Source of the DNA: a virus
Taxonomy: Duplodnaviria > Caudoviricetes
Strand: one strand, 5' to 3'
Length of the DNA stretch: 43,563 nt
Virus record (IMG/VR): IMGVR_UViG_3300032162_000171
Span: 1-43,563 of that record
Shown piece by piece: positions 7,067 through 43,312 of this stretch (position 1 is its first letter; each line of letters starts with the position of its first letter). The notes below the pieces were generated by a model. It was not told where the DNA came from. It saw only the letters and a list, made by a program, of their open reading frames with translations, and did not search any database. The position numbers were made by a program, and so were the translations under genes.

Positions 7067-8005
7067 ATGCCGACATCAAGCAAAACCGAAAGGATACCGC
7101 TCGCGGACGTGCGCGTCACGAACCGCCGCCGCGAAGAGTTCGGCGACATCGAAGGGCTGGCGGAGAGCATTCGCAAGTACGGCCTCTTTCACCCGATTGT
7201 CGTTGACGAAGAAAACAATCTCATCGCGGGCGAGCGCCGCCTGCGCGCGTGCCGCTTCCTTGAGTGGTCGGAGATTCCGGCGAGGATGTACCGCGAGCTT
7301 ACCGATGACGAGAAATCCGAAATCGAACTTGAGGAAAACCTTCGCCGCAAAGATTTAACGCCGTATGAGCAGTCGAGAAATTTGGTGAAGCTGGCGGAGA
7401 CGGCGGCGAAGATTGATGAGAAAGAATTATCGAAAGTCACTTTCGATAATTCCGAAGGTGAATTACGTTTTGCGGAAAAACGTAATTCTGCTGGCCGTCC
7501 TGAAAAACCCGGCTCGCTGCGCCGCGTTGCCGAACGTCTCGGTGTCTCGCCAGCGCCTATTGTTCAGGCGCAAAAACACGTCGCCGCCGTCGAGCGTTAT
7601 CCCGAACTGCAATCCATCCCGACGCAAAAGGACGCGCTCACAATCGCCAAGAACCTCGACGCGCTTCCCGAAGAAACACGCACCGAAGCGCGCGAGAAGC
7701 TGGCGCAGAACGACGCCGACACGCTCACCACGCTTGCGGAGAAGCCGCCGATGCCTGCGCGCGACCCGAACGCCAAGAAGTCGGCGGCGGAACGGTGGAC
7801 GCAGGGCATTTACGAAACGCAAAAGATTTTTACGAGTGTCGGGATGCTGGGCGGTATCCGGCAGTTAGTCCGCTCTTGGAACCCAAAAGAGCGTGCCGCC
7901 TATTACACGCGAGTCTGCGAATTATCACAGCAACTCGCCCAACTGAAAGACCAACTTGAGGAGGTATTAGATGCAGAGCGCGATGGACAAGAAAATGTCG
8001 CGTAG
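7067..8005 (+). CDS. ParB/Spo0J-like protein (ParB N-terminal domain plus HTH)
   Basis: LAESIRKYGLFHPIVV...LIAGERRLRA and ELEENLRRKDLTPYE motifs; HTH SLRRVAERLGVS. Confidence 0.88.
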   Translation: MPTSSKTERIPLADVRVTNRRREEFGDIEGLAESIRKYGLFHPIVVDEENNLIAGERRLRACRFLEWSEIPARMYRELTDDEKSEIELEENLRRKDLTPYEQSRNLVKLAETAAKIDEKELSKVTFDNSEGELRFAEKRNSAGRPEKPGSLRRVAERLGVSPAPIVQAQKHVAAVERYPELQSIPTQKDALTIAKNLDALPEETRTEAREKLAQNDADTLTTLAEKPPMPARDPNAKKSAAERWTQGIYETQKIFTSVGMLGGIRQLVRSWNPKERAAYYTRVCELSQQLAQLKDQLEEVLDAERDGQENVA

Positions 8006-17747: not shown

Positions 17748-19256
17748 CTATGCCGGAACGTTGTCCGCCGGATTATTGTTTACAGTTGGGTCAGTTCCAG
17801 CATCAGCCGGAAGAACGACGTGGCGCTCATTATCAAGCGCCACGTCTCGCACAATATCTGGCTCGGTGGCGAGATTCTTTCCGAAGATTCGCTCAAGTTC
17901 GGTCTTCACGTCGAAGTCAACGCCAAGCTTGCCCGCGCGCTTCAAGAGTTCGAGCATCGTTTCAAGCGATAATTGTTTGTCCGTGACGAACAGGCCTAAG
18001 GCACGCATTTCATCGACGCTTAAAACAAGACGGTCATATTCGACGTTCGGCTCGAAGGAACCCGTGCCGGCACGCCCGGCCATTTTCTCATGCGCTTCAT
18101 ACGCGTTCTGGGTCGCGCCCTGCAAAGATTTCACCATCAGGGAGATTTCCGAGTTCGATTCCGCTGAGTCGATGATCTCGCCGGTCGCGGTCTTCGGCCC
18201 CGGAGTCTTCTCCGCGAGCATGGAAAGCGCCGCCATCGCCATATCGACTTTGATAGTTTCGATGTCCTTCATCGCCGCTTCAATGGCATGGCCTTGATGC
18301 TCTGCGAAGCCGATCATCGAGTGCTCGCCCGTTAAATCAATGAGCGCCGACGGGCCGATGGCTTCAATAGGAACTTGCGTATTGCGGTCGCGCGCCCACA
18401 TCACCGGCACATTAGCGAAGTGCAAGATATTATCGAGATCGCTTTGCTTCTGGTAAAGCTGGATCGCCATGATAGCGAGTTCGAGAAGCGGCGGCTCGCT
18501 AATTAACGGCGCGCACTCTTCGCCGTAAACAGGAAAGATCGGAATGTAGTCGAGGCCGCTTTTGCCTTCTCGTTCCAGATCGAGTTGGCGTCCGTTCTTG
18601 CGATACAGTTTCCATGATCCGGGACGCAGCACGCGAAAGCGCGTGACCTGCTTTTCGCCGAAGTCGCCTTCGCCTTCCATTGTCATTTCCCGAAACACGA
18701 TCAGCGTCAGCACGGTTTTGCCGTTAATGTTTTCCGTGCGCCAGTTAATCGCCTGTCCTTTTTTGTAGAGAATCCAGTAGGGGCGTAAATCCGCGTCGTG
18801 TTCGTCCTTGAGAGTCGGCGCGGGCGCGAGCGTGTCGCTTTCCTCAAGTGGTGGCGGCATCTCGACATAGATAAAGGCGTGGCCGTCCTTCGCCGCGCTT
18901 TGAAGCACGTTGCGCGCGAAGACTTCGCCCTTTGTTCCGGCGAGGTCGATGTTTTTCCAGTCATTGATAAATCCATCGGAAACCTCTTTCCAATTCGGAT
19001 CGCGGCGAAAGACGAGGCCGACGAGTTTGCCGAGCGCGCGCTTGAACACCGGCGAGAAGACGGAGCGCGTTACACGCGATTGATACTCGTCGTCGCCCTC
19101 CATCGGGTTCTTTGGCAAATATTCTTGCCTGCAATCGCGAATGCGCGGCGATCCTTCGTAAACATCTTCGACGATCTTGATGGTGCGCATTGCTGCTTTG
19201 TATGCGGCGCATTGAAAGTCGGCGCGGTCTTTGGTGAGTGAGAGTGAGATTGCCAT
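17748..19256 (-). CDS. Portal protein (DUF4055-like)
   Basis: 502 aa after terminase; YLPK...Y..R, NIDLAG, RPYW...INWR, PPLLELA...QKQSD, KTAT motifs. Confidence 0.88.
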   Translation of the reverse strand: MAISLSLTKDRADFQCAAYKAAMRTIKIVEDVYEGSPRIRDCRQEYLPKNPMEGDDEYQSRVTRSVFSPVFKRALGKLVGLVFRRDPNWKEVSDGFINDWKNIDLAGTKGEVFARNVLQSAAKDGHAFIYVEMPPPLEESDTLAPAPTLKDEHDADLRPYWILYKKGQAINWRTENINGKTVLTLIVFREMTMEGEGDFGEKQVTRFRVLRPGSWKLYRKNGRQLDLEREGKSGLDYIPIFPVYGEECAPLISEPPLLELAIMAIQLYQKQSDLDNILHFANVPVMWARDRNTQVPIEAIGPSALIDLTGEHSMIGFAEHQGHAIEAAMKDIETIKVDMAMAALSMLAEKTPGPKTATGEIIDSAESNSEISLMVKSLQGATQNAYEAHEKMAGRAGTGSFEPNVEYDRLVLSVDEMRALGLFVTDKQLSLETMLELLKRAGKLGVDFDVKTELERIFGKNLATEPDIVRDVALDNERHVVLPADAGTDPTVNNNPADNVPA

Positions 19257-19339
19257 TGCTGAATCCTGTCCGGTTGGTGAGCGGGAGGTTAAAAGATTGG
19301 ACTCGAAACATTGGTTTGAAACCAACTATTTGCAAGTCG

Positions 19340-22300
19340 TTAGCGGCGGAATTTTGTGACGGTGAAGTTGTCGGCGGCTTTGAGGTCAGTGGTTGCGACG
19401 CGATAACGTAAACCGTCGCAGTTATGCACGAGCACGCCGTTCGCGTAATACTCTGGCGAGTCTTCAACGGTGAGATTGTAAACGGGTTGTGGTTCTGCTT
19501 TTGATGTGAGCGTATGCACACGGCAGAGAGCAGCATTGTTTTGCTTGGTGGGGTTTGGCCTCGAACTGCTTTTGGCAGTTAAGGCAAGATCGTTTGTCAT
19601 TACGAACAAGTCGTTGAGCAGAGCATGTCCGCGAACAGTAAGTCTTTGGAGTGTATTTATTGCAACTGAATTCCTTCTCGCACTGTGGACAGACCTTTGT
19701 GATGTTATCGAGTCCGTTTTCGCGCCTCCAGCGGGACTTGCAGTTGTTAGAACAGAATCGATCAGACTTGCGCCGTCCCATTGATTCAAACTTTTTGCCG
19801 CATTGATCGCAGATGCCCGCAAGCGGCTTGCGATCCTTGTAAATCTCTTTTCCGTGTTCGCTGTGCCATGCGCGACCTTCAGGTGAGCGATGCCACTCAA
19901 CTGCGCCGCGCCGCATCTTTTCGAGAAAACCTTTAGTGCTGCTTTTATAGGCGATTGCTTGTCGCTGCCGGGCTGTCGGAATGTGTTTGTCGTTATGCTC
20001 GCGCGCTGGAATTGCTTCGAGATTTTCGATGTTGTTATTAAGAGCATTACCATCCCGATGATGGACATGATAGCCCTCTGGAATAGTTCCGTGATGAAAT
20101 TTGTAGATGTCTCTATGTAATGCTCCGCAACCCTTTCTTTTATCGCCGATGTCGCACCTGAAATAGTTGCGGTCACCGAACTGCTTTGCTTCGGGATAAC
20201 GCCGATAGACAATCCCATTGAAGCGCACGCGCTCGATACGCGGTGCCCCGGAAGGCAAACTGATGATCTCCATTGCGGGTTCTCCCTTACATCTAATAGA
20301 GCATCATTATACCGCAAAGCATCCATTTGAATAAAATCTTTTCCTTTGACGTAAACCGGATGGTTGCCTGTGCCGATGAGTGTGCGTCCGTCGTTAAGCA
20401 TAAGAGTTTTAACTGGAGCGGAAGGGTTCGTTAAGCCCGCCGCCAGCACGCGCTTATATCCTTTGCGCGTGAGCACAAGATCGCCTGCTTTGATTGTTTC
20501 AATTGGCCGTTCGCCGATGAGGGTTTCAATCATTGTGCCCGCGACAAAGCAACCGTGATCGTTCTTCTTCACAGGCTTGCCGTCCAGCCCGTAAATGTAG
20601 CTCCAGATTTCTTCGAGCGTGCTGCTCGGCAAATGCTTCGCTTCAAGCTCTTTGTCTTTCGTCCACACGGCATCGCGGCGAACATAGATGCGCGCCCGCC
20701 CGTCGGCGCGTTTCTTGAGCCTTGTGCGCACGGCGTCGCAACCGGCTTCGACATCCTTCTTCGCAGCTGTGGTCGAGAGGCGCGCAAAGCGGCGATTCTT
20801 GCGAAGGTGTTTAATGAGCGTAGCGCGATCTTCGGCGTCGTGATCGGTAATGATTTCAGAGAAGTCCGGCTCATCGAAGTGGTCACAGATTTTAATGATT
20901 TCTGCCGCATGGTCTTCGACGATCTTTTGCGACATGTAGATTTCGCGGTAAAGGTAAAGCCTGCCGTCAGAGTCTTCCGCCCAGAATTGACAGACAAAGG
21001 GATTGGAGAAACCGAAGTCGATGGAGAGCGAACGCCGCCAACTTCGCGGCGGCTCCGTCGTGTAATCCGCGCCGTCGCCGAAGCGCCCCTTTTTGTCATC
21101 GTAAACAAGATTCCACTCGTCGTCCCAGCCGTTGAAAACATGTGTCTCTTCTTCAAAGCCGTCGAAGACCATCCCTTCTGTCATGCACCAGATACCGTCA
21201 CGAAAGCGCTTTAAGCGCGCGCCCGTTAAATCGTCGAGCGCGTTCATGTACACTTTGCCTTTGAGTCGCCACTTGCCGGTTTCCTGATTGAAAAAGAGCG
21301 GGTTGTCGGTGTGTTTGGCCGCGATCATGCGCAGCTTTCCGGCGTCACGGCGTTTGATGAGGTAGTGCATCGGAGAATCCGGGTTGCACATAAAGAGAAG
21401 CTGCTGGTAGCCCGCTTTGTAGTTTCTCAGGCGCGTCGTCAATGATTCATGATTATCTTCGCTCGCCTCCGTCCCTTCATCGAAAAGAATAAAGTCCCAT
21501 TCGGTAGACATTACTTTCGCTGACTTATCCATGCCCGCAATGGCAGCAATGGATTTGTTCGGATAACGATATTCCTGATCGCCGCCGTGATAGTAAACAT
21601 GGCGGTTCGAGGCTTTCTCGGAGAAGCGTTCGCCGAGAATTTTTTGCTCGTAGGTGACAAGCGTTGATTGCACAAGTGAGACGCGCGTCTTGCGCAAGAT
21701 CAGGCAGCGGCAGCCCGGGTAGTACCGCGCAAACGTATCGAGCTTCAAAAGTCCCCCGAAACTTTTGCCTGTGTTGTGATGCCAGATACCCTCGGCAAGA
21801 TAATGCTCTGCACCCGGTACATGAAGATCATAGTAATCATCAGTGCGCTCGTAAGTAATACTTGTGACCTGTTCCCATAGTCCCTTATAATGCGAACTCG
21901 AAGGAGTAAACAAAGATGCCGAAAAAGGGTTACAAACTGCTAACACACGAGCAGAAGAAAGAAATTGTGAATAGTTATCTGGGGACGCATTCAGCAAGAG
22001 AGACGGCACGCCGTCTTGGTTACACACCTCAGCGTGTGTACTACGTGTTAAAGCGAAATGGTTTTGAAAAACTAGAGAAAGCTCCACGCGGTGCTTGTTA
22101 TCGAAACTTCGACCTTGTGAAGCAGTTAGCCCGTGAGGGTTGGTCGCTGTCAGAAATTGCGCGTCGCGTTGGTTCAAAAAATCAATTGGTTGCCAAATTC
22201 CTTCGGTGTAATAACATTCCTCACACACGCTTTGACCAGAGCGGCAAAAATAATCCGGCTTGGAAGGGAGGAAGGATGCTTGAGAAAGGAAAATACGTTT

Positions 22301-22921
22301 TGATTCATCAACCAGACCATCCTTTTGCAAACCGACATGGTTATGTACGTGAGCATCGGCTTGTGATGGAAAAAGCGCTTGGCCGCTATCTATCATCGGG
22401 CGAAGTTGTGCATCACAAAAATGACAATGGTTTGGACAATCGTTTATCGAATCTTGAAGTACATCCTTCAAACGGGCATCACTTGAAAGCGACTCTGACG
22501 GGCAAACCTCACGCAGTGTCGGAGAGAGGGCGGGAGAAGCTGCGCGCAATTGGTCGCCGACTGCAATCTCGGAGAGCTTTAGCCAGCCACACTTAGTTTC
22601 AAATAGATGATCTTTGGTTACTAAGACTGACGCGCCTGATGCTGTTATAACTCGATAGAGTGCTGCCCTTCCTTTTAGAAAAGGAACCGTGGCGAGTTGC
22701 ATCCCGCCTTGTGTTAGCACGACGGGTGCTCTCCTTTGCGAGTGTAAGTCGCAAATTGAAGTGTGCGCGCCGGTCAGTGGTTCATATATCCGCGTTTCGC
22801 CTGCGACACATCCCGCCGGGCCGGAATGCACAACTTCGCGGCGCGTTTCATCCATCACTTCGCGCGCCGTGCCGTAAAGAATGAAGTCGGGGGTCTTTTT
22901 AGTCGACGTCAGGGTTGTCAT
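19340..22921 (-). CDS. terL: Terminase large subunit precursor with two inteins (1193 aa; about 470 aa after splicing)
   Basis: Walker A GPAG|TGKS restored by removing intein 1; Walker B ILFDEGTE; motif III CNP; nuclease SIDFGFSNP and NDHG|CDGLRY restored by removing intein 2. Confidence 0.93.
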   Translation of the reverse strand: MTTLTSTKKTPDFILYGTAREVMDETRREVVHSGPAGCVAGETRIYEPLTGAHTSICDLHSQRRAPVVLTQGGMQLATVPFLKGRAALYRVITASGASVLVTKDHLFETKCGWLKLSEIAVGDQLRAASPALSPTLREVCPSESLSSDARLKDVLQDSINDCPNHCHFCDAQLRPMIDSGQALFPSQADAHVHNHVGLQKDGLVDESKRIFLSQASFLPSKPDYFCRSGQSVCEECYYTEGIWQPIDFLNQRDAQFLTATNPHGLTASQGRSFDNKHRVELSLVFQNHFALTRSTHAEVCNQDGVPSLLLNASPDNYSQFLSSARVLAVCNPFSASLFTPSSSHYKGLWEQVTSITYERTDDYYDLHVPGAEHYLAEGIWHHNTGKSFGGLLKLDTFARYYPGCRCLILRKTRVSLVQSTLVTYEQKILGERFSEKASNRHVYYHGGDQEYRYPNKSIAAIAGMDKSAKVMSTEWDFILFDEGTEASEDNHESLTTRLRNYKAGYQQLLFMCNPDSPMHYLIKRRDAGKLRMIAAKHTDNPLFFNQETGKWRLKGKVYMNALDDLTGARLKRFRDGIWCMTEGMVFDGFEEETHVFNGWDDEWNLVYDDKKGRFGDGADYTTEPPRSWRRSLSIDFGFSNPFVCQFWAEDSDGRLYLYREIYMSQKIVEDHAAEIIKICDHFDEPDFSEIITDHDAEDRATLIKHLRKNRRFARLSTTAAKKDVEAGCDAVRTRLKKRADGRARIYVRRDAVWTKDKELEAKHLPSSTLEEIWSYIYGLDGKPVKKNDHGCFVAGTMIETLIGERPIETIKAGDLVLTRKGYKRVLAAGLTNPSAPVKTLMLNDGRTLIGTGNHPVYVKGKDFIQMDALRYNDALLDVRENPQWRSSVCLPGHRVSSACASMGLSIGVIPKQSSSVTATISGATSAIKERVAEHYIETSTNFITELFQRAIMSIIGMVMLLITTSKISKQFQRASITTNTFRQPGSDKQSPIKAALKVFSKRCGAAQLSGIAHLKVAHGTANTEKRFTRIASRLRASAINAAKSLNQWDGASLIDSVLTTASPAGGAKTDSITSQRSVHSARRNSVAINTLQRLTVRGHALLNDLFVMTNDLALTAKSSSRPNPTKQNNAALCRVHTLTSKAEPQPVYNLTVEDSPEYYANGVLVHNCDGLRYRVATTDLKAADNFTVTKFRR
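19421..20551 (-). mobile_element. Intein 2 (377 aa) in the terminase nuclease domain
   Basis: Starts CFVAGTMIET, block B GTGNHPVY, ends VYNLTVEDSPEYYANGVLVHN, +1 Cys. Confidence 0.93.
19464..20273 (-). CDS. HNH endonuclease with three zinc-ribbon repeats, nested in the -1 frame of intein 2
   Basis: LHRDIY...VHHRDGNALNNNIENLEAI...H; three CxxC...CSxxC units; own TATAAT (20306-20311) and AGGGAG RBS. Confidence 0.9.
   Translation of the reverse strand: MEIISLPSGAPRIERVRFNGIVYRRYPEAKQFGDRNYFRCDIGDKRKGCGALHRDIYKFHHGTIPEGYHVHHRDGNALNNNIENLEAIPAREHNDKHIPTARQRQAIAYKSSTKGFLEKMRRGAVEWHRSPEGRAWHSEHGKEIYKDRKPLAGICDQCGKKFESMGRRKSDRFCSNNCKSRWRRENGLDNITKVCPQCEKEFSCNKYTPKTYCSRTCSAQRLVRNDKRSCLNCQKQFEAKPHQAKQCCSLPCAYAHIKSRTTTRLQSHR
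21773..22810 (-). mobile_element. Intein 1 (346 aa) in the terminase Walker A motif
   Basis: Starts CVAGETRI, block B VTKDHLF, ends YYDLHVPGAEHYLAEGIWHHN, +1 Thr. Confidence 0.93.
21916..22596 (+). CDS. HTH-HTH-HNH endonuclease nested antisense in intein 1
   Basis: Two HTH-like segments, NNPAWKGGR, EHRLVME...VHHKNDNGLDNRLSNLEV; own TTGTGA-18 nt-TATAAT (21862-21891) and AAGGAG RBS (21901). Confidence 0.9.
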   Translation: MPKKGYKLLTHEQKKEIVNSYLGTHSARETARRLGYTPQRVYYVLKRNGFEKLEKAPRGACYRNFDLVKQLAREGWSLSEIARRVGSKNQLVAKFLRCNNIPHTRFDQSGKNNPAWKGGRMLEKGKYVLIHQPDHPFANRHGYVREHRLVMEKALGRYLSSGEVVHHKNDNGLDNRLSNLEVHPSNGHHLKATLTGKPHAVSERGREKLRAIGRRLQSRRALASHT

Positions 22922-23657
22922 TGACTTCTCCCTTCTCATTAACAGCGTCAGGCTTGGCCGCGTCCCATTTTTCAGGATTGAAGCCCTGTACGAGCACAAT
23001 GTTAGCTGCGCCCGGCGTGTTGACGTTGATCTCCTGCGGCTCGTGCAATCCGAGCAGCTTATCAACACGTTCTTGCGCGCGGTCGGCGACAAGGAGAAAG
23101 CGCGGATCACCGAGCAGTTGAGATTTCTTGCGCCTAATCACATGCCGCGTTGCGCCCGGCAGTTTTATCTTTCTCTTGAGATCGTTTACTGAGAGTAGAG
23201 CTTCGGCGCTTCCATCGACTTGCTCCATCAACGCGCCGACGGTTGTATTCAGTTCGACGGTCTGTCTGTCCTCGTGAATCTGGTTGACTTCGCCGATAGA
23301 GCGTTCGTAGCCTTCGTAAGCCGTCGAGTGCAGCTCGTAAGCGCGGGCAAGCTGCATGCTCAAATGTTCTTCGTATTTCTGACGCGACTCTTTGCGCCAA
23401 TCCGCGCGGATTTTCTTGAAGTCGTAATCGATCATCTGCCGCGTGAGTTTGTAAGGCGCAGGCGGAGCATTTGGAATTACCGAATCAGCATCGAGGGCAT
23501 CGAGTTCTTTGAGAGCTTCTTTGTATTCAGTTGTGCGACGCTGGAAAAGAATGTCGGCGATGCGCTGGTGGGTAATGTTGGGAAAGCGCGTGCGAAGTTG
23601 TGCGAGTTCGACACGATCACGTTCGGTTTGCCATTCTTCGCGCTTGTTTTCGGCCAT
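22899..23657 (-). CDS. Putative terminase small subunit
   Basis: Directly upstream of and overlapping terL; HTH-like THQRIADIL; GDPRFL...ERVDKLLGL motif. Confidence 0.7.
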   Translation of the reverse strand: MAENKREEWQTERDRVELAQLRTRFPNITHQRIADILFQRRTTEYKEALKELDALDADSVIPNAPPAPYKLTRQMIDYDFKKIRADWRKESRQKYEEHLSMQLARAYELHSTAYEGYERSIGEVNQIHEDRQTVELNTTVGALMEQVDGSAEALLSVNDLKRKIKLPGATRHVIRRKKSQLLGDPRFLLVADRAQERVDKLLGLHEPQEINVNTPGAANIVLVQGFNPEKWDAAKPDAVNEKGEVNDNPDVD

Positions 23658-23790
23658 GAGGTAAACGAGCGGAGCGCGCGGCAGTGAGAAAGGCGCGCGC
23701 GCTCATTCGGGTGAGGATCGGAGAAGCTCACGTTGGTTCTCAGTTTGAAGGTGTGAGGCCTTCGTCGTGGCTGCCCTTCTCCGATGAGAG

Positions 23791-24414
23791 TTAAATCCCG
23801 AGCGGTGAAAGAGCAGGCTGATGCCTCGCGCTCAAAACGCCGCCGCGCGAGTGCGTGACGCGTGCCGGACGCAAATCGTTAGCGACGGGCTTAATGTATG
23901 GAATACGCTTAGTCTCGCGCGCCATTTCCGTTTTGTACCGAATCTTAGCGATGAGTTGCTTCGGCGTGAGCACGCGCCAGAGTGGAATGACGCGCCGCAT
24001 GAATTTGCGAGAGCCTGAGCCTTTGAGAAGTCCCGCCTGTGGAGAGAGGAATTGCAAGCCTTGTTTGCGCGCGTCGTTGCATCGCTTCAAATCGTCGAAG
24101 AATTGTTCGGCGGCCTGCAACTCGATTTCCGTTGCCCGCTCGCGCGCCTTCATAGAGCGGCGCAGAAGTCTGGCGCGGCGCGAGTCATGCACGCTGTAGC
24201 CGAGCGGCAGCCCGCGCGTGTTCTTACGAGCGACGCGCTTTGAGCCGTGCGTGATTGCTTTGGTGAACTGCGCAGCCATCGCCGCATCGAACGTACCCGG
24301 ACGACTAACAAGGGATTCTTCAAGACGTGCTTTGCTCGCTATTGTCGAGCGCACCGTGCCGTAAAGCTGCTGCACGGCTCCGGCGAATCTATTCATCAAT
24401 ACTTTTAATTTCAT
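23791..24414 (-). CDS. Basic hypothetical protein
   Basis: 207 aa Arg/Lys-rich ORF immediately after folE. Confidence 0.6.
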   Translation of the reverse strand: MKLKVLMNRFAGAVQQLYGTVRSTIASKARLEESLVSRPGTFDAAMAAQFTKAITHGSKRVARKNTRGLPLGYSVHDSRRARLLRRSMKARERATEIELQAAEQFFDDLKRCNDARKQGLQFLSPQAGLLKGSGSRKFMRRVIPLWRVLTPKQLIAKIRYKTEMARETKRIPYIKPVANDLRPARVTHSRGGVLSARHQPALSPLGI

Positions 24415-24417
24415 GTG

Positions 24418-25221
24418 TTACCGATTCCTTTGAATGAGGTTGTAGAACTCGTCGCGCGCGGTTGGACGGAGGCGGAAGACGCCGCGCATCACGGCGTTCG
24501 ACATCGAGCCTTGAGTCTTAATGCCGCGCATGGTCATGCAGGTGTGCATTCCGTTGGCACACAAAACGGCGACATTGCGCGATTCGGTGATGCGCTCGAT
24601 TTCGTCGGCGATTTGCACGGCCATGTTTTCTTGAGTTTGCAGGCGGTGACTGCACTGGTGGGCGATGCGGGCGAATTTGGAGAGGCCGAGCACGCGACCA
24701 TTGGCGATGTAGCCGCAGGAAACGTCGGTGTAGAAGGGAAGCAAATGGTGTTCGCAGAGCGACCAGACCCGCATCCCGGAGACGGCGACCATTTGATCGG
24801 AAACAAGTTCCTGATCGAACGTCGTGTCGGTTGTGCCGGGCGCGTATTCCATAAAGTCGCGCCAGAAGCGGGCGACGCGCGCCGGAGTATCGGAGAGGCC
24901 GGAGCGTGAAGGATTTTCGCCGACAGCTTCGAGAATCATGCGGACGGCGAGTTCGATTGTTTCCGTATCGACGGTCTTCTTTTCATGGGCGAGGGCGATG
25001 ACAGCTTCGCCTAATTCATCGCGTTCGGGCGTCTGCGTCGCGGCGGTTGATTCGATTATTGCGCCGACGAAGTCCGGGATGATTTCGGTTACTTCCTGAA
25101 GTGTGGAAGCCGCCAGACCGTTGGCGCGCGCCGTGATGTCGGCCTGTGCGCCTTCAAGAATGTCGAGGCCTGTGGTGAGTGATTCGGGGGTGAGTGATCC
25201 GGGGTTGTCGAGTTTGCTCAT
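24418..25221 (-). CDS. folE: GTP cyclohydrolase I with N-terminal extension
   Basis: GLSDTPARVAR, SLCEHHLLPF, GLSKFARI, RLQTQE, HTCMTMRG motifs. Confidence 0.95.
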   Translation of the reverse strand: MSKLDNPGSLTPESLTTGLDILEGAQADITARANGLAASTLQEVTEIIPDFVGAIIESTAATQTPERDELGEAVIALAHEKKTVDTETIELAVRMILEAVGENPSRSGLSDTPARVARFWRDFMEYAPGTTDTTFDQELVSDQMVAVSGMRVWSLCEHHLLPFYTDVSCGYIANGRVLGLSKFARIAHQCSHRLQTQENMAVQIADEIERITESRNVAVLCANGMHTCMTMRGIKTQGSMSNAVMRGVFRLRPTARDEFYNLIQRNR

Positions 25222-25227
25222 AAAGTT

Positions 25228-25521
25228 TTAAGGAAGCTCGGATTGCTCGATGTGCTTGTCCGGCTTCACAGGAGGCGCGGGCGCGGGGTGAGGTGCGCCC
25301 GCGTCTTCCGGTCGCGGGGTGAGAGTTGATAGGTTTGCTCTGTGTAGCGCTGTCTTGTGCTCGTAAGCGTGACTGTTTCTATTGAGCAATCGTTCTCGAT
25401 AAGAAGCAGTTAAATTCGATTTTGCGAGCAGTTTGTTGTCGCGTTTGATGGTGCGTTCATAGGAAAGCTGGAGATGCCTTACAAGGAAGCAAGCGATGAA
25501 ACAAAGTAAGTCTCTAAACAC
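25228..25521 (-). CDS. Hypothetical protein
   Basis: 97 aa, fills the queE-folE gap and overlaps the queE stop. Confidence 0.45.
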   Translation of the reverse strand: MFRDLLCFIACFLVRHLQLSYERTIKRDNKLLAKSNLTASYRERLLNRNSHAYEHKTALHRANLSTLTPRPEDAGAPHPAPAPPVKPDKHIEQSELP

Positions 25522-26296
25522 CTTGTTTGTTCCCCCATATCAACGTATGAATTTGCGGGATAATCGACACGTCAAACCACTTGTCGCGGCTCACGCGTTC
25601 GACGAGCCAGCGCGTGCGCGCCATCACGCCTTCCGTGTCGAACTCATCGTTTTGCGAGTTGTACTTTGCGCCTTCGGGCGGCGTGTGATTACCGGGCGTG
25701 AGGAAAAAGGGAAATCTTTGCGGAAAAAACATTCGGTCTAACTTGCCTGAAAGAGAGCGCGCGAAGTTGTAATCCTCTTCTGTCATTACAACGACTTTTA
25801 TTGAGAGTCCCGATACATTGCTTTTGTTCAGTACACTGCGCGCTCCGGGACTGTAAGCATCAATGCACTCTTCCAATCGAGGTTCGCGGAAAGACATCCC
25901 GGACGACGGCGGCTTTGGAGAAAGAATCAAATAATCGAGTTTGTGGAACCAAGTCTTTGCAATCGACCCTTGCGTTTCCAGCGCGAACTTATAACCGCGT
26001 TCATGACCGAGATCGATTAAAGACGCGAGCGGTTGCAGCGCAGGGTTGCCGCCGGAGAGCGTGATAAGAATCGGTTTGCCTTCAGTGAGCGCAGCCACTT
26101 CTGCTAGCACTTGTGTTGCGTCGAGCTTGCGCCAGTTGGCTTTGTTCGCCGGGTCAACGGCGTGCATCGAATCACACCATGCGCAACGAAAGTCGCAGCC
26201 GCCTGTACGCACAAAGACGGTGGGACGCCCGACGAGTGCGCCTTCGCCTTGAATCGTGAGAAAGGCCGGTTCAGCAATGGAAATGAGTTCGCGCAT
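25514..26296 (-). CDS. queE: 7-carboxy-7-deazaguanine synthase (radical SAM)
   Basis: TIQGEG...VFVRTGGCDFRCAWCDS, TLSGGNPALQ, LETQG, SPKPPSS, PQIH. Confidence 0.95.
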   Translation of the reverse strand: MRELISIAEPAFLTIQGEGALVGRPTVFVRTGGCDFRCAWCDSMHAVDPANKANWRKLDATQVLAEVAALTEGKPILITLSGGNPALQPLASLIDLGHERGYKFALETQGSIAKTWFHKLDYLILSPKPPSSGMSFREPRLEECIDAYSPGARSVLNKSNVSGLSIKVVVMTEEDYNFARSLSGKLDRMFFPQRFPFFLTPGNHTPPEGAKYNSQNDEFDTEGVMARTRWLVERVSRDKWFDVSIIPQIHTLIWGNKQGV

Positions 26297-26302
26297 TGAC
26301 CT

Positions 26303-27304
26303 TTAAGCTTCCAGAAGAAATGAGCGCCACGCTTTGAGAGCGCGCCGGTTGGAGGAAGCGAGCGCGCGGCGATTGAGCCAGCAGCCGAAGCGTCCCGCCA
26401 TCTCTGCCATCTGCATTGAGAGAACAATGTCTTCGGCAGAGTTCGGATCGGCGCAGAAGATGCCCGGTAGCCATTCGATTTCATGTGAGCCGACAACCGG
26501 CACACCGCCCGCAACCGCGTCCGCCGTGACGATATTGAAGGTTTCCGTGTAGGAGACTTGGAGCGACAAATCCATTCCGGTGATCACGCGCTTGAATTCG
26601 TCGTGCGTGTACCACTCATGTTCGACGAGCGCGTGCTGCGAAGCGGCGAAAAGAGAGCGCAGATTCTTGAGCGTTTCTTCGCCGCGCTGTTCGCAGCGCG
26701 CCGCGTTGACGTGAAAACAAAGCGTGCGATTGGTTCGCTCCGCATAGATGAGCGCGGCGACGGCCTGCATGAGTTGATTCTTGAGCGGGCGAATTGCGCC
26801 GAAGCAGCCGACATCGAGGAATTCACGACCTTGAGCCTTTGCGCGCTGGCGCGGAGGGGCATCCGTGAGCGGATAAATGTTCGGCAAATAATGAACCTCG
26901 CCGTCGAAGAGTTCGGAGAGTTCGGCGGCCGTGCGCGCGCTGTTGGCGGCAAGCTCTGTCATGAGGAAGCCAGTTGCTATGCGGCGCGTCCATTCCATCG
27001 CGATGCCTTCGGAAGCGAGAAACGGAGTCTTTGAATGAACGCGCACGAAAAAGCGGACTGACGGATGCAAGCGCGCTAACTCGGTGAATTTTTCAGGCAC
27101 GACCCACAGCGCTTCGATAACAACGTGCGTCGGGCGATGCTCGGCGATGGCTCGGTCAATGCAATTGTTGTCAATGACTTCAACGGCTGCGCAGGGAATG
27201 CCGAAGGCTTTGAGCGCAGCGGCGAGCAGGCGCGCGGAATTGAGCAGCCCTGAGCTTGCGCCGTAAAGTGTATTGAAGCGTTTGGTCAGGAAGAGAATTT
27301 TCAT
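26303..27304 (-). CDS. GT-B fold (GT4-like) glycosyltransferase
   Basis: MKILFL start, FGAIRPLKN, DLSLQVSYTETFNIVTADAVAGGVPVV donor-binding motif. Confidence 0.8.
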   Translation of the reverse strand: MKILFLTKRFNTLYGASSGLLNSARLLAAALKAFGIPCAAVEVIDNNCIDRAIAEHRPTHVVIEALWVVPEKFTELARLHPSVRFFVRVHSKTPFLASEGIAMEWTRRIATGFLMTELAANSARTAAELSELFDGEVHYLPNIYPLTDAPPRQRAKAQGREFLDVGCFGAIRPLKNQLMQAVAALIYAERTNRTLCFHVNAARCEQRGEETLKNLRSLFAASQHALVEHEWYTHDEFKRVITGMDLSLQVSYTETFNIVTADAVAGGVPVVGSHEIEWLPGIFCADPNSAEDIVLSMQMAEMAGRFGCWLNRRALASSNRRALKAWRSFLLEA

Positions 27305-27356
27305 GTGGTAAAGCGGCGGGCGCGGGAGCAAGTACAAATGAGGAACGAGGAAAAGT

Positions 27357-27839
27357 TCAGTATCTAAATGGCTGACAGTCATCCCTGAACAATTTGCGAA
27401 TCTCGTCGAAGGTTGGCTGTGAGCAGCCAACCTGAATTTCTGTTTCGAGCTGGACGTGCAAATTAACCGCTTTTACTTTTTCGGGTAGCCGATATTCAGC
27501 CCATGTTTTACCTGTTTCACTAACGCGCACAGCGAGAAGCGGCCAGCTTTGTGTTCCCGAAATCCATTCGTAAAAATGGCGCGCGAGATTCTCTGCTGTC
27601 GGCTGAAACGTGAAGACATCGTTTAAGTGGCGATGATCGCAACGCGATTGAACGTACTCGTCGAAAACCTTTAATTCGTTGTAATCGACAACGAAGCCGT
27701 ACTCGTTTGTTTCCTCGGCTGCGAGTGAAACTTCTACGACATATCCATGACCGTGAAGACGCATACATTGATGGCCTTCCGGCAGCCCTTTTAATTGGTG
27801 AGACGCTTCAAATCGAAACTGTTTCGTTATCGTGAACAT
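27357..27839 (-). CDS. queD: 6-carboxy-5,6,7,8-tetrahydropterin synthase
   Basis: FEASHQL...CMRLHGHGY, DHRHLND, PTAENLA, VSET. Confidence 0.95.
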   Translation of the reverse strand: MFTITKQFRFEASHQLKGLPEGHQCMRLHGHGYVVEVSLAAEETNEYGFVVDYNELKVFDEYVQSRCDHRHLNDVFTFQPTAENLARHFYEWISGTQSWPLLAVRVSETGKTWAEYRLPEKVKAVNLHVQLETEIQVGCSQPTFDEIRKLFRDDCQPFRY

Positions 27840-28019
27840 GGGAAGTAATCTGGTAAGTAATCTGTGGAGTTACTGGTAAGCTAAACAGTGGGGTTCAGTG
27901 ATTGTCTATACAGATAAGGGATTGAGGAGTGCATCATCTTCGCGAGTGCTCGACTAGATGCGTCACGAGTCTTACGGCTTAATTTCAGGATGACCTGCCG
28001 CCTGCGAGTGAGGTGAAAA

Positions 28020-28754
28020 TCACACGAGGTGAATCGCCGGGGAACTTCCTGCGGGTGTAACGCCGTCCGGCGCGACAATCACATAATCCGAAGCGTAATC
28101 CGTTAAGTCTTCGACGCCTGCGAGTTGGAACGCCTCACGCCTTTCCGTGCAAGTGCCACAGCGTCCGCAGTGAACATCCCCGCCTTCGTAGCAGCTCCAC
28201 GTCAAATGCAGCGGCACGCCCAAAGAATCGCCGAGCACGACGATGTCGGCCTTCGACGCGGAAATGAACGGGCGCAGAAAACGCACTTGCTGCCAGTCGC
28301 ACAGCATCGCTGCCGCGTCCATCACCGCCGCGAATTCCGGCCTGCAATCCGGGTAGATCGCGTGATCGCCGCCGTGCGCGCCATACGCGACGAAGCCGAA
28401 GCCTTGCGAGATGGCGTAGCCGATAGCGATTGACAACATAATCATGTTGCGGTTCGGCACGACCGTCGCCTTCATGCTTTCTTCTTCGTAGTGGCCGTGC
28501 GGCACCGCGACATCCGGGGAAGTCTGCGAACTGCCCGTGAGCAAATGCTTGATGCCGGAGAGGTCTGCGATTTCGAGATCGAGGCCTAAACGCTCGCAGA
28601 ATTCCTGCGCGCTTTCCAGTTCTTTGACGTGGCGCTGGCCGTAGTTGATCGAAAGCGGCTTGAGTGTCGCGCCCTTTGAGGTGAGCAAATAAAGCAGCAC
28701 CGTCGAGTCAAGTCCGCCCGAATAAATAGGGACAACGTTATTTTCCGTTCGCAT
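28020..28754 (-). CDS. queC: 7-cyano-7-deazaguanine synthase
   Basis: [29 protein letters not shown]...CGRCGTC. Confidence 0.96.
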
Positions 28755-29805
28755 TCTTTTTCTTGTCCTTCACGGCCTTCTTGCCGAAAGCCTGTTCCAT
28801 GTTGCGGCCGCCCATCGAACCGCCTTCGCCTTCGGTTGCACAGATCGCTAGCCGAACGCTTGGCTCGCTCTCCGGCGCAGAGAAAGCAGAGTTGTTGCGG
28901 ATGTTATTTGCAGGACTTCCGACGGCGAGGCGCACGACCGGATTAGGTTCTGTGAGTTTTCCGAGTTCACTCATTTGCTTACGCCAGCGGAACTGCGCTT
29001 TGCGCTCCACTTCCAGATACCACTCGACTTCTGCGCGCAGGTTCTGGTTCGAGCCGCGCACGCTCATTTGACCGAACGTATTCCATCGTCCGAAGCGACA
29101 CGGCCCCATCTCCCAATTCGTCGCGTCTACTGAATGCCACGGCAACGCCAAGATATGTTTCTCGCTGCCGTAACCGAAGCCGTGCAATTTCTTCGGCCAC
29201 ACGCGCGCGAAACATTGCTCGGCGAACTTCAACTTGCCGTCGCCGCGCATCAATGCGACGCCGCCGAGCGCGACTTTCGGATAATCGGCGGCTATGTTAA
29301 TGAGCGCCTCCCACGGCTCGCCGTAGTGAAAGCAGGGAATCGCAGGCACGCCTTGACGCCACATCTCTTCGCAGTTTTTGAGAGACGCGCGCCAATCGCC
29401 GATTACGTCGAGCGCAAACACTTCCGTAAGCTGCGGGTCGGTTTCGAGCAGGTGCTTGGCGGTGTCGATGTAGTCCTGAAGTTTGATTACAGTGCCGGAG
29501 TTGTGAGCGGAGAATGCGCCGGAATCGAGCACCCAATCCCGAAAGTGATAGCGATGGCGATTCTTGAGAAAGCCTTTGATGTACACGAAAGAAACGAGCA
29601 GCGCCGGGGCGAGAATTGTTCCTTTATCTGAGCAATCGTAGTGCATGGGATAGCGGTTTTTACCGGATGCGTTCGAGCATGAGATCATCGCGTGCGTCGC
29701 AGCTAAACGAACGGTAGGCGCGTCGAGTGCTTTGTAGGCATTAACGGGGCCGGGATTGTAAGCGAGGCGCACGCTCGGAGATGATGTTTCTATTTTCGCA
29801 GCCAT
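28738..29805 (-). CDS. DpdA/TGT-like 7-deazaguanine DNA transglycosylase (putative)
   Basis: [38 protein letters not shown]-barrel motifs; adjacent to queC. Confidence 0.75.
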
Positions 29806-29996
29806 TCGACTTGTGAGTGAGTGATAAAGAAAACGGCACCGCAATCCCATGAGCAATCAATCGACGGATCGCAACTCCACGTTTCATCTTCGTGCGTGGT
29901 GATAGCGAAACCTTCGAGGCTTAATCGTTGATGGCACTTCGGGCAATTGATTGCTTTTACTTCCGCGTTGCCCGTCGGTTCGTCTACGGCGTCCAT
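29790..29996 (-). CDS. Small Cys-rich protein (DUF6527-like)
   Basis: CPKC...PSIDC..DC...[10 protein letters not shown]; GGAGGAG RBS and TAATG overlap. Confidence 0.6.
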   Translation of the reverse strand: MDAVDEPTGNAEVKAINCPKCHQRLSLEGFAITTHEDETWSCDPSIDCSWDCGAVFFITHSQVEWLRK

Positions 29997-30648: not shown

Positions 30649-31449
30649 CTATTTTAACCCTTCTTCCAAGTGAGGGTTAGCTATAAAATCCGCTGCGATG
30701 AGTTCCATACAGCGGCCTTCGGTCAGCGAGGATTCGCCGCAGATCAAGCGAATGCGTTCGATGGCTTGGTTAATAATGAGGCGCTGGTTCGGCGTGCAGA
30801 TGATCGAGCAGTCATCGCTCGCTTTATCGCCCGCTTCTAAATTTTCGTGAGGGTCAGAACCGGCGCGCTCTTTATTGTTTCCGGCAGCATCCGTCTCGCT
30901 GCTTGAGCCGTTGCCCGATTCTTGAGCGGAGGGCGGCGTCCAGTCGGCGGCGAGAAAGGGCGAGATGTCATGTTCCTCGAAGCCGAGATCATCGTTCGAG
31001 AATTCCAACTCCGTGCCGTCGAATTCTTCTTTGAGGCTCCCGACGTTCGACGCGAGTTGCTCGAAGTCCCACGCCGATGAAAGCCCCGACGCGTTATCGG
31101 AAATCGCATAACCCGTCGCCTCGCCGCCTTCGAGTGCCGACACGACAATCCAGACGTGCGTCCAGCCTTCTTCTTCGGCGGCTTCGTGCGTGCCATTGCC
31201 CTTAAGAATCTTGCCCGCGCGGTCAACGACAATCGGCGTTTGCTGGCCGCGCCGTCTGAGGGACGCTCGTATGTGGCGAACGTTCTTTTCAGGATGAAGG
31301 CGCGCGTTTTCAGGATCGCGCGTGAGCGAATGAAGCGGCACGATCAGGCGCGACGCGTCCGGGTGCGTCGGCTCGCCGTGATAGAGCGGCCATACATACG
31401 CCTCAAAATCGAGAGGCTTAGTGGGTTGGATTTTCTCTTCCCTTGCCAT
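30649..31449 (-). CDS. ParB/Srx-like protein at the head of the DNA-modification cluster
   Basis: DPENARLH...SLRRRGQQTPIVVD...ILKGNGTHEAA...DNAS...WD. Confidence 0.85.
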   Translation of the reverse strand: MAREEKIQPTKPLDFEAYVWPLYHGEPTHPDASRLIVPLHSLTRDPENARLHPEKNVRHIRASLRRRGQQTPIVVDRAGKILKGNGTHEAAEEEGWTHVWIVVSALEGGEATGYAISDNASGLSSAWDFEQLASNVGSLKEEFDGTELEFSNDDLGFEEHDISPFLAADWTPPSAQESGNGSSSETDAAGNNKERAGSDPHENLEAGDKASDDCSIICTPNQRLIINQAIERIRLICGESSLTEGRCMELIAADFIANPHLEEGLK

Positions 31450-42472: not shown

Positions 42473-43312
42473 ATGAAAAAATATCAGAACTCTGCAAAAC
42501 GTACAACTGTCGCCGCTCCGACGTGGGCGGAACTTCTTCGGGAAGCGATCACCAAACCCGGACGAATCTTAGAAGCCTACACCTACTTCCACAACTACAG
42601 CGTCGGCAATCAAATGCTCGCCTTGTCACAGTGCTACGAGCGCGGTATTACGCCCGGCCCTATCTCGACGTTTCCCGGCTGGCAGCAGCTCCGCCGCCAT
42701 GTCCGCAAAGGAGAACGAGCGATTGTTCTTTGTATGCCGATCACGATCAAAGGTAATCGCAGCGATGAAGCGGCAAAGGAAGAATCGAGCGAAAAGGGAA
42801 GCTGCTTTACAAGTTTCGTCTACAAGCCGAATTGGTTCGTACTATGCCAGACCGAAGGCGAGGAGCTGCCGAAAGCGAGCTTACCAGAGTGGGACAGGAC
42901 GCACGCGTTATCCGCTCTCAACATCGAAGAGATTCCCTTCGATCTAACCGACGGCAATACGCAGGGCTTTGCGCGCAAGCGACAGATTAGCGTCTCGCCC
43001 ATCGCCGCGCTTCCGCACAAAACAACTTTTCATGAACTCGCGCACGTCGTCCTCGAACACACGCAGGAGAGCGAGTTCGCCGACTCGGAATACACGCCGC
43101 GCAATCTCAAGGAAGTTGAAGCCGAAGCGGTCGCGCTCATTCTCTGCGAAAGCTTGCAACTTCCCGGCACTGAGTATGCGCGCGGCTATATTCAGCACTG
43201 GCTCAAGGGCGCAGCCAATATTCCCGACAAAAGCGCGCAGAAGATTTTCAAAGCGGCCGATGTAATTCTCAAAGCAGGCACGGCTTCAAAGCAGGAGGGC
43301 GCCGCGAGATGA
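42473..43312 (+). CDS. ArdC-like ssDNA-binding/antirestriction protein with zincin-like domain
   Basis: FHNYSVGNQML...TFPGWQQLRRHVRKGERA; HELAH and EVEAEAVA; YIQHW. Confidence 0.85.
   Translation: MKKYQNSAKRTTVAAPTWAELLREAITKPGRILEAYTYFHNYSVGNQMLALSQCYERGITPGPISTFPGWQQLRRHVRKGERAIVLCMPITIKGNRSDEAAKEESSEKGSCFTSFVYKPNWFVLCQTEGEELPKASLPEWDRTHALSALNIEEIPFDLTDGNTQGFARKRQISVSPIAALPHKTTFHELAHVVLEHTQESEFADSEYTPRNLKEVEAEAVALILCESLQLPGTEYARGYIQHWLKGAANIPDKSAQKIFKAADVILKAGTASKQEGAAR

Follow-up and report, generated by a model that had tools for sequence, protein, structure and literature searches.

Inteins whose nuclease is encoded outside the intein reading frame, or antisense to it, have already been described. 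Gosselin et al. (10.1101/2025.01.02.630785) report in their main text frame-3 endonuclease VII-like, antisense LAGLIDADG/VSR-like and in-frame HNH inteins, name the terminase large subunit among the host genes of the non-canonical ones, and propose that a free-standing nuclease gene invades an intein. The available text of Phillips, DeSimone and Gogarten (10.64898/2026.09.14.751524) describes a cyanobacterial DnaX intein with an out-of-frame LAGLIDADG gene, and that of Arsenault et al. 2025 (PMC11855218) describes ShiLan, a hidden out-of-frame HNH gene in phage DNA methylases. Related arrangements, again as given in the accessible parts of the papers, are the fractured genes with split inteins of Dassa et al. 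2009 (PMC2677866), which include one terminase example and have a separate nuclease gene between the intein halves with its 3' end overlapping the C-terminal half, and the mycobacteriophage TerL inteins of Kelley et al. 2016 (PMC5050341), which splice in a reporter. Collaborative homing has been described too, as far as the available text of that source goes (PMC10448857).

Here we analysed a single 43.6-kb phage contig (depth about 14), called the window throughout at its full length, in which the second of two inteins in the large terminase gene (terL) holds a complete HNH gene in another reading frame. As in the main text of Gosselin et al., the intein is contiguous, the nuclease ORF lies on the same strand in frame 3 (= +2 = -1), and the host gene encodes a terminase large subunit; unlike their endonuclease VII-like type, the nuclease is HNH_3/I-HmuI-like with zinc ribbons, and whereas that text calls such layouts rare, we found at least 131 clusters. 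The words 'promoter' and 'leaderless' are absent from the same main text, on which the comparison is based, and the present family may overlap their set (for example in actinophage TJE1). With the DnaX intein, going by its available text, the locus and its relatives share a +2 ORF under purifying selection, a raised dN/dS in the intein frame, a disordered filler, an upstream SD motif and coexisting mini, full and apparently empty alleles, although the DnaX case is a LAGLIDADG gene in a bacterial replication gene and ours an HNH gene in a phage terminase. ShiLan, in the portion of the paper accessible, is alike in having an out-of-frame HNH gene inside an open host frame, with leaderless initiation suggested there, but differs in its host gene and in having no splicing domain. 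The split layout of Dassa et al. is matched by about 11 loci of the present HNH family and by phage CL2, while the nucleases in their accessible text are GIY-YIG and Vsr-like and the window's intein is contiguous. Finally, the P-loop sites in the available text of Kelley et al. resemble the site of intein 1, whereas all TerL sites given there fall in the ATPase domain and intein 2 lies in the nuclease domain.

Our literature search, run outside most subscription journals, found no out-of-frame HNH/zinc-ribbon gene in a terminase intein at a nuclease-domain site. The layout as such is already described, and what is new here is the nuclease type, the site, the promoter signature and the scale. 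The initial annotation of this DNA had presented a nuclease outside the intein frame as an exception to the rule; the exception is real at this locus, but its surprise was overrated, since the layout is already in preprints, as far as their available text goes, and belongs to a large family.

Two inteins in one terminase gene

The window carries portal, scaffold, major head, tape-measure and endolysin genes, and its large terminase (TerL) gene occupies 19340..22921 on the minus strand, as recognised from open reading frames, a Terminase_6N match and, for the middle extein, PHROGs terminase large subunit. Translation from the ATG at 22921, which is the likely start judging from the GGGAG upstream, gives a precursor of 1193 aa and a predicted mature protein of 470 aa. 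Intein 1 (21773..22810, minus strand; 346 aa), recognised by its motifs and missing in the relative X3 described below, interrupts the P-loop (GPAG|TGKS). Intein 2 (19421..20551, minus strand; 377 aa) lies at the site DHG|CD, near the C-terminus of the terminase nuclease domain and 26 residues before the end of terL. The 26-aa C-extein (19343..19420, minus strand), read from the sequence, begins with C-D, and we take this +2 Asp to be a likely catalytic carboxylate of the terminase nuclease (H-x-x-D motif). Comparison of the terminase nuclease extein with PDB sequences gave no useful match, and the middle extein as query found no viral contig.

Elsewhere in the window, folE, queE, queC and tgt-like genes lie at 24418-29856 (minus strand); this set is typical of 7-deazaguanine DNA modification, which could influence which DNA the nucleases cut. 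Two ParB-like genes and one anti-restriction-like gene are found at 7067-8005 (plus), 30649-31449 (minus) and 42473-43312 (plus).

The initial annotation had claimed that intein 2 splits DHG|CD and retains intact splicing blocks, and both the coordinates and the C1...H-N|C residues confirmed this. Specifically, intein 2 has C1, T61-x-x-H64, block F, H376-N377 and a +1 Cys in a frame that is open with both exteins, the features of a class 1 intein. AlphaFold (AF2) modelled residues 1-90 and 341-377 with pLDDT of at least 90, and these N- and C-terminal parts together build a Hint fold in the model, while the filler between them (residues 103-335) was unstructured and mostly below a pLDDT of 50. 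Solved inteins topped the Foldseek list for this model, with the gp41-1 intein at E 5.7e-6 (rmsd 1.6, 87 columns). The GC content was 0.50 in the intein vs 0.54 in the extein.

A complete HNH gene nested in intein 2

Intein 2 contains a second ORF of 269 aa (19464..20273, minus strand) in frame -1 (= +2), supported by Pfam, a structural model and homologues, whose ATG lies 278 nt into the intein and whose stop, 43 nt short of the intein's end, falls within the block-F codons. The initial description of a 269-aa HNH ORF in the -1 frame, with both frames open, was borne out by the ORF coordinates and translations, as was that of its motifs: three CxxC...CSxxC pairs start at residues 155/174, 195/213 and 230/248, and residues 52-94 match Pfam HNH_3 at E 2.3e-14. 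HNH_3 was found in all 18 family members examined, and H71, H72, N84 and H93 are invariant in the family. The search returned 93 homologues of the nested nuclease, the closest of which is 58% identical to the window's own gene.

The model of the nested protein (mean pLDDT 89) consists of an N-terminal I-HmuI-like HNH domain, a long helix and three zinc-ribbon-like repeats. I-HmuI (PDB 1u3e), a phage intron-encoded HNH homing endonuclease, was the top VIA match over residues 1-99, with a Z of 6.5, below 8 (rmsd 3.5, 77 aligned); Foldseek with the model as a whole returned nothing at E <= 0.001, with I-HmuI at E 0.44, and the sequence match to I-HmuI had an E of 0.059. The two share the N-terminal HNH domain; unlike I-HmuI, the nested protein has a C-terminal part made of three Cys4 zinc-ribbon-like repeats, with weak FCS/YacG-type matches only, and its gene sits in an intein.

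Several other assignments were tried and rejected. The frame-3 endonuclease VII-like subtype of Gosselin et al. would not apply, since that Pfam family was absent from the 18 members at E <= 0.01. A group I or II intron carrying the nuclease was discarded for want of a ribozyme (no Rfam match at E <= 1 within 18500-24000), as was a fractured gene with a split intein at the window locus, where intein 2 is contiguous, and a canonical intein with an in-frame HNH domain, given that 0 of the 203 listed homologue clusters were open and in frame.

Intein 1 holds an antisense HTH+HNH gene (21916..22596, plus strand; 226 aa), identified from its ORF, Pfam and homologues and absent from the initial annotation's account of intein 2, so that one terL gene carries two hidden nucleases in two different layouts. 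Upstream of this gene are TTGTGA-18-TATAAT (21862-21891), a 10/12 match to a sigma-70 promoter, and AAGGAG at 21901-21906. The antisense arrangement in an open P-loop intein was seen in 24 of 26 homologue loci, which were not deduplicated and come mostly from one clade; these loci were read from open frames, and the intein profile did not detect the intein-1 family.

The nested layout across the family

To place the locus in its family we used a profile of the nuclease alone, built from a second alignment (A2) because the first (A1) was too diverse for the locus search, and took the 80 highest-ranking loci in each of three collections (240 loci). The nuclease was nested in an open intein in 164 of these 240 best-scoring loci, always in frame +2, while the others had no intein (41), one intein half (18), halves in different frames (10) or stops (7); the class without an intein is an upper bound, since truncated contigs and undetected inteins, whether split or decayed, may be counted in it (e.g. 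L155). After clustering at 90% identity, 131 of the 203 listed clusters were nested, and none was open in frame 0 or +1. The C-extein measured at most 90 aa in 151 of the 159 nested relatives listed, which points to the same region at the end of terL, and C1 and a terminal N with +1 C/S/T were present in all 159, TxxH in 152.

The nuclease is nested in four cultured phages, TJE1, Highwayman, phiCDHM19 and LS06-2018-MD07, in all of which the annotation over the nested ORF is terL only. In PAE1, SN1, EauM-23, Poludnitsa, BP10 and Shemara it lies outside an intein and adjoins the terminase genes.

Some further features of these loci were observed. The nested ORF often stops 55 nt (47/159) or 43 nt (34/159) before the intein end, at stops that conserved block-F codons create, which is likely passive run-on. 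Phage phiCD119 (L068) has three stops in the intein frame and a fragmented annotation, from sequencing error or decay, and phiCDHM19 is open; several family loci have stops in the HNH frame. In L024, L030, L031, L033-L035 and L056 the host genes of the inteins are different ones, apparently helicase-like, and the inteins have ORFs in the +1 frame, which by eye we take to be Vsr/DUF559-like.

Selection on the two reading frames

The initial annotation had suggested dN/dS in both frames across homologues as a check. A disjoint set of 21 was drawn from 247 pairs of relatives, and the 12 of these with at least 65% identity were pooled. Over the same bases dN/dS was 0.17 in the nuclease frame vs 1.36 in the intein frame, with 0.19 in the N-terminal splicing part and 0.19 in the extein, figures that describe relatives, since the window's gene has no relative above 58%. 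Judged from these alignments, selection in the relatives is on the nuclease frame and the intein frame is not selected, and the asymmetry argues that the filler is a by-product which needs only to be free of stops. The locus shows what sets a non-canonical intein apart, namely an intact nuclease ORF in a separate frame, with selection on that frame seen in relatives.

When the window locus was recoded synonymously 5000 times, the intein frame had 0 stops in 9.5% of draws; chance openness is thus not rare there, and it is the family that lifts the evidence above chance. In free-standing homologues the frame equivalent to that of the intein had 3.2 stops per 100 codons vs 10.4 in the other frame, and it was open in 1 of 34 of them, which shows openness to be maintained in the nested copies. 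The -1 offset was likely favoured because the family has few stop codons in that frame.

Start signals of the nested gene

An AGGGAG motif resembling a ribosome-binding site (20282..20287, minus strand) lies 8 nt before the nested ATG, and a TATAAT box resembling a -10 element (20306..20311, minus strand), read as Y-N in the intein, lies 32 nt before it. Both parts of the start region first proposed for this gene are therefore present, but a full sigma-70 promoter is not, as the sigma-70 scan of the nested ORF found the -10 box and no -35 element; the upstream sequence also has no TG extension of the box. A hairpin over the nested start was rejected, since folds there did not outdo those of shuffled sequence (z -0.5 and -0.1).

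The signals recur in the family. A -10-like box, overlapping a conserved intein motif, was found at intein nt 210-270 in 78 of the 145 listed clusters with an intact nuclease, a count uncorrected for shared ancestry; by comparison, shuffled sequence gave 36, the reverse strand gave 38, and 200 synonymous recodings preserving the intein protein averaged 31 and never exceeded 41. An ATG was present within the searched range in 120 of these 145 clusters and in none of the other 25, and the box ended exactly 6 nt before the ATG in 34 of the 120, vs 0.2% of 1466 control ATGs. The SD motif was missing in 33 of the 36 clusters with the box 5-7 nt from the ATG and present in 32 of the 49 with a longer leader, and short leaders without an SD motif beside long leaders with one are the pattern expected of leaderless and leadered mRNAs; the window's nested gene is of the leadered type. 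On this comparative evidence, the need to encode the intein protein does not by itself account for the conservation of the -10 box and start signals.

Apparently empty sites and other forms of the element

A related terL gene, in X3, differs from that of the window at 60 of 1206 bases (about 95% identical) and runs continuously across the site of intein 1, which is missing there. The X3 contig ends in G-D-D-G-C-D where intein 2 would begin C-F, and from these 18 terminal bases of one contig the relative appears to be without intein 2; in X3 no contig bridges site 2 and none covers the nuclease. The terL genes that neighbour free-standing homologues, which are more distantly related, carry no interruption at the DHG|CD motif. 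A 298-nt X3 record (depth 2.6) comes from a second, divergent terL, matches the window at 51 of 57 bases across the extein/intein-2 junction (20521-20577) and goes on into intein-like sequence. Lower GC in the intein than in the extein, together with a relative whose site seems empty, points to a recent arrival.

Among 16 clusters of near-identical elements, 4 had inteins 99.5-100% identical within upstream exteins 78-91% identical, and the other 12, several of which are near-duplicate records, showed little or no discordance between intein and extein. A distribution of the homing type, with the element more alike than its host gene, is thus seen among the relatives, and identical inteins in divergent exteins can also be explained by ordinary phage recombination. 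For 30 of 40 free-standing homologues, the end of a terL nuclease lies no more than 600 nt upstream. By analogy with collaborative homing, this suggests that the nuclease family targets this terL region with or without an intein.

The same HNH gene lies between the halves of a split intein in about 11 loci (L128, L197, L221, L256, L260, L263-L266, L272 and L282), and a split intein also surrounds it in Lactobacillus phage CL2 (L070), where no C-terminal terminase piece is annotated. A FastTree tree with 177 rows requires 25 changes among the labels nested, free and split, 6-7 of them forced by well-supported branches, whereas shuffled labels average 41. The tree gives no direction of change; transitions between the forms have probably been repeated. 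A mini-intein of 135 aa at the same site (L003:391-795) has kept TATAAT-6 nt-ATG with a truncated ORF and is likely a deletion derivative. The nested element was also observed at other terminase positions in L015, L058/L059, L274 and L306, some near Walker-B-like motifs, from which we conclude that site switching probably occurred.

Discussion

We consider it very probable that the locus combines intein 2 with a separately expressed nested HNH gene, likely acting as its homing endonuclease, and that the filler is removed by predicted splicing. The terL mRNA would yield the 1193-aa precursor, from which the Hint domain, evident in the anatomy of the intein, and the disordered filler would be excised, rejoining DHG to CD. 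The 269-aa nuclease would come either from a short transcript begun at the internal -10 box or from ribosomes initiating within the terL mRNA at AGGGAG. In a mixed infection the nuclease would then attack terL copies that lack the intein, nicking or cutting them close to the 3' end, and the intein would be copied in during repair, a step that we infer from the likeness to I-HmuI and from the distribution of the element. The initial annotation had already proposed that the nuclease is expressed separately and that the filler is spliced out, and this inferred scheme is compatible with every test run, including frame selection, start signals and the Hint fold.

An intein-N/HNH fusion made by programmed -1 ribosomal frameshifting on the terL mRNA would fit a nuclease frame that is always -1, the commonest programmed frameshift, and the 25 of 145 relatives without an ATG in the searched range. 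We regard it as improbable, given that two -1-frame stops stand 10 codons before the nested ATG, that we saw no slippery heptamer by eye in those 30 nt, that a -10 box exactly 6 nt before the ATG, or else an SD motif, is conserved, that stop-codon content accounts for the bias in frame, and that the antisense gene of intein 1 cannot arise in this way. Just as improbable is that the nested gene here is a recently silenced remnant, passive in a functional intein: the selection figures stem from relatives while the window copy has no close one, there is no -35 element, and degenerate family copies exist (the loci with HNH-frame stops, and L003), but the ORF is full length with the invariant His, Asn and Cys residues of the family, its TATAAT is perfect and accompanied by an SD motif, and the lower intein GC and an apparently empty relative are signs of recent arrival. 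Slightly less probable again is a domesticated packaging helper of the terminase, like HK97 gp74, in place of a homing enzyme. HNH proteins that assist terminase are known from the available text of two papers (PMC10448857; PMC12724721), and nearly all family members lie within terL or next to it; against this, site 2 is apparently empty in X3, which has no contig covering the nuclease, the architecture is I-HmuI-like, a type that the accessible part of PMC12724721 sets apart from the GVE2-like packaging type, and L003 has lost the nuclease while keeping the -10 box and ATG.

The initial annotation had also named read-level frameshift errors that displaced an in-frame HNH domain as what would overturn its reading, and two compensating errors of assembly or sequencing might be suspected in one metagenomic contig of depth about 14, whose accuracy we judged from contigs. 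Run X1, possibly the window's source, is identical over 18900-23300, and a 151-nt contig of another study (X2) is identical over 20174-20324, spanning the -10 box, the SD motif and the ATG, so that an independent contig agrees across the nested start. The argument from the nuclease family is stronger than that from contig identity: at least 131 independent clusters, including four cultured phage genomes, share the offset and none is in frame. In addition, the HNH frame is closed by stops just upstream of the ATG and terminates before the intein does, and an artefact is scarcely credible.

We put forward more tentatively, as a possibility somewhat short of an even call, a wider view in which the out-of-frame layout would be a stable regulated design and not a passing intermediate. 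A host-type promoter within conserved intein codons, often giving a leaderless mRNA, would time the nuclease independently of the late terminase, and one terL-targeting HNH/zinc-ribbon family would move repeatedly between free-standing, nested and split forms. It would then be a major class of homing enzymes of phage inteins that has gone unannotated.

A phage terminase intein that looks degenerate, with a 'junk' middle, can conceal a nuclease gene that is intact, under selection and overlooked by annotation. The window shows this compactly, since one of its genes hides two HNH genes, and a close relative apparently has neither. Long dual-coding regions of natural origin, in which selection is clearly asymmetric, are available in the family, whose free-standing, nested, split and mini forms make up a testable series for the gain and loss of nucleases by inteins.
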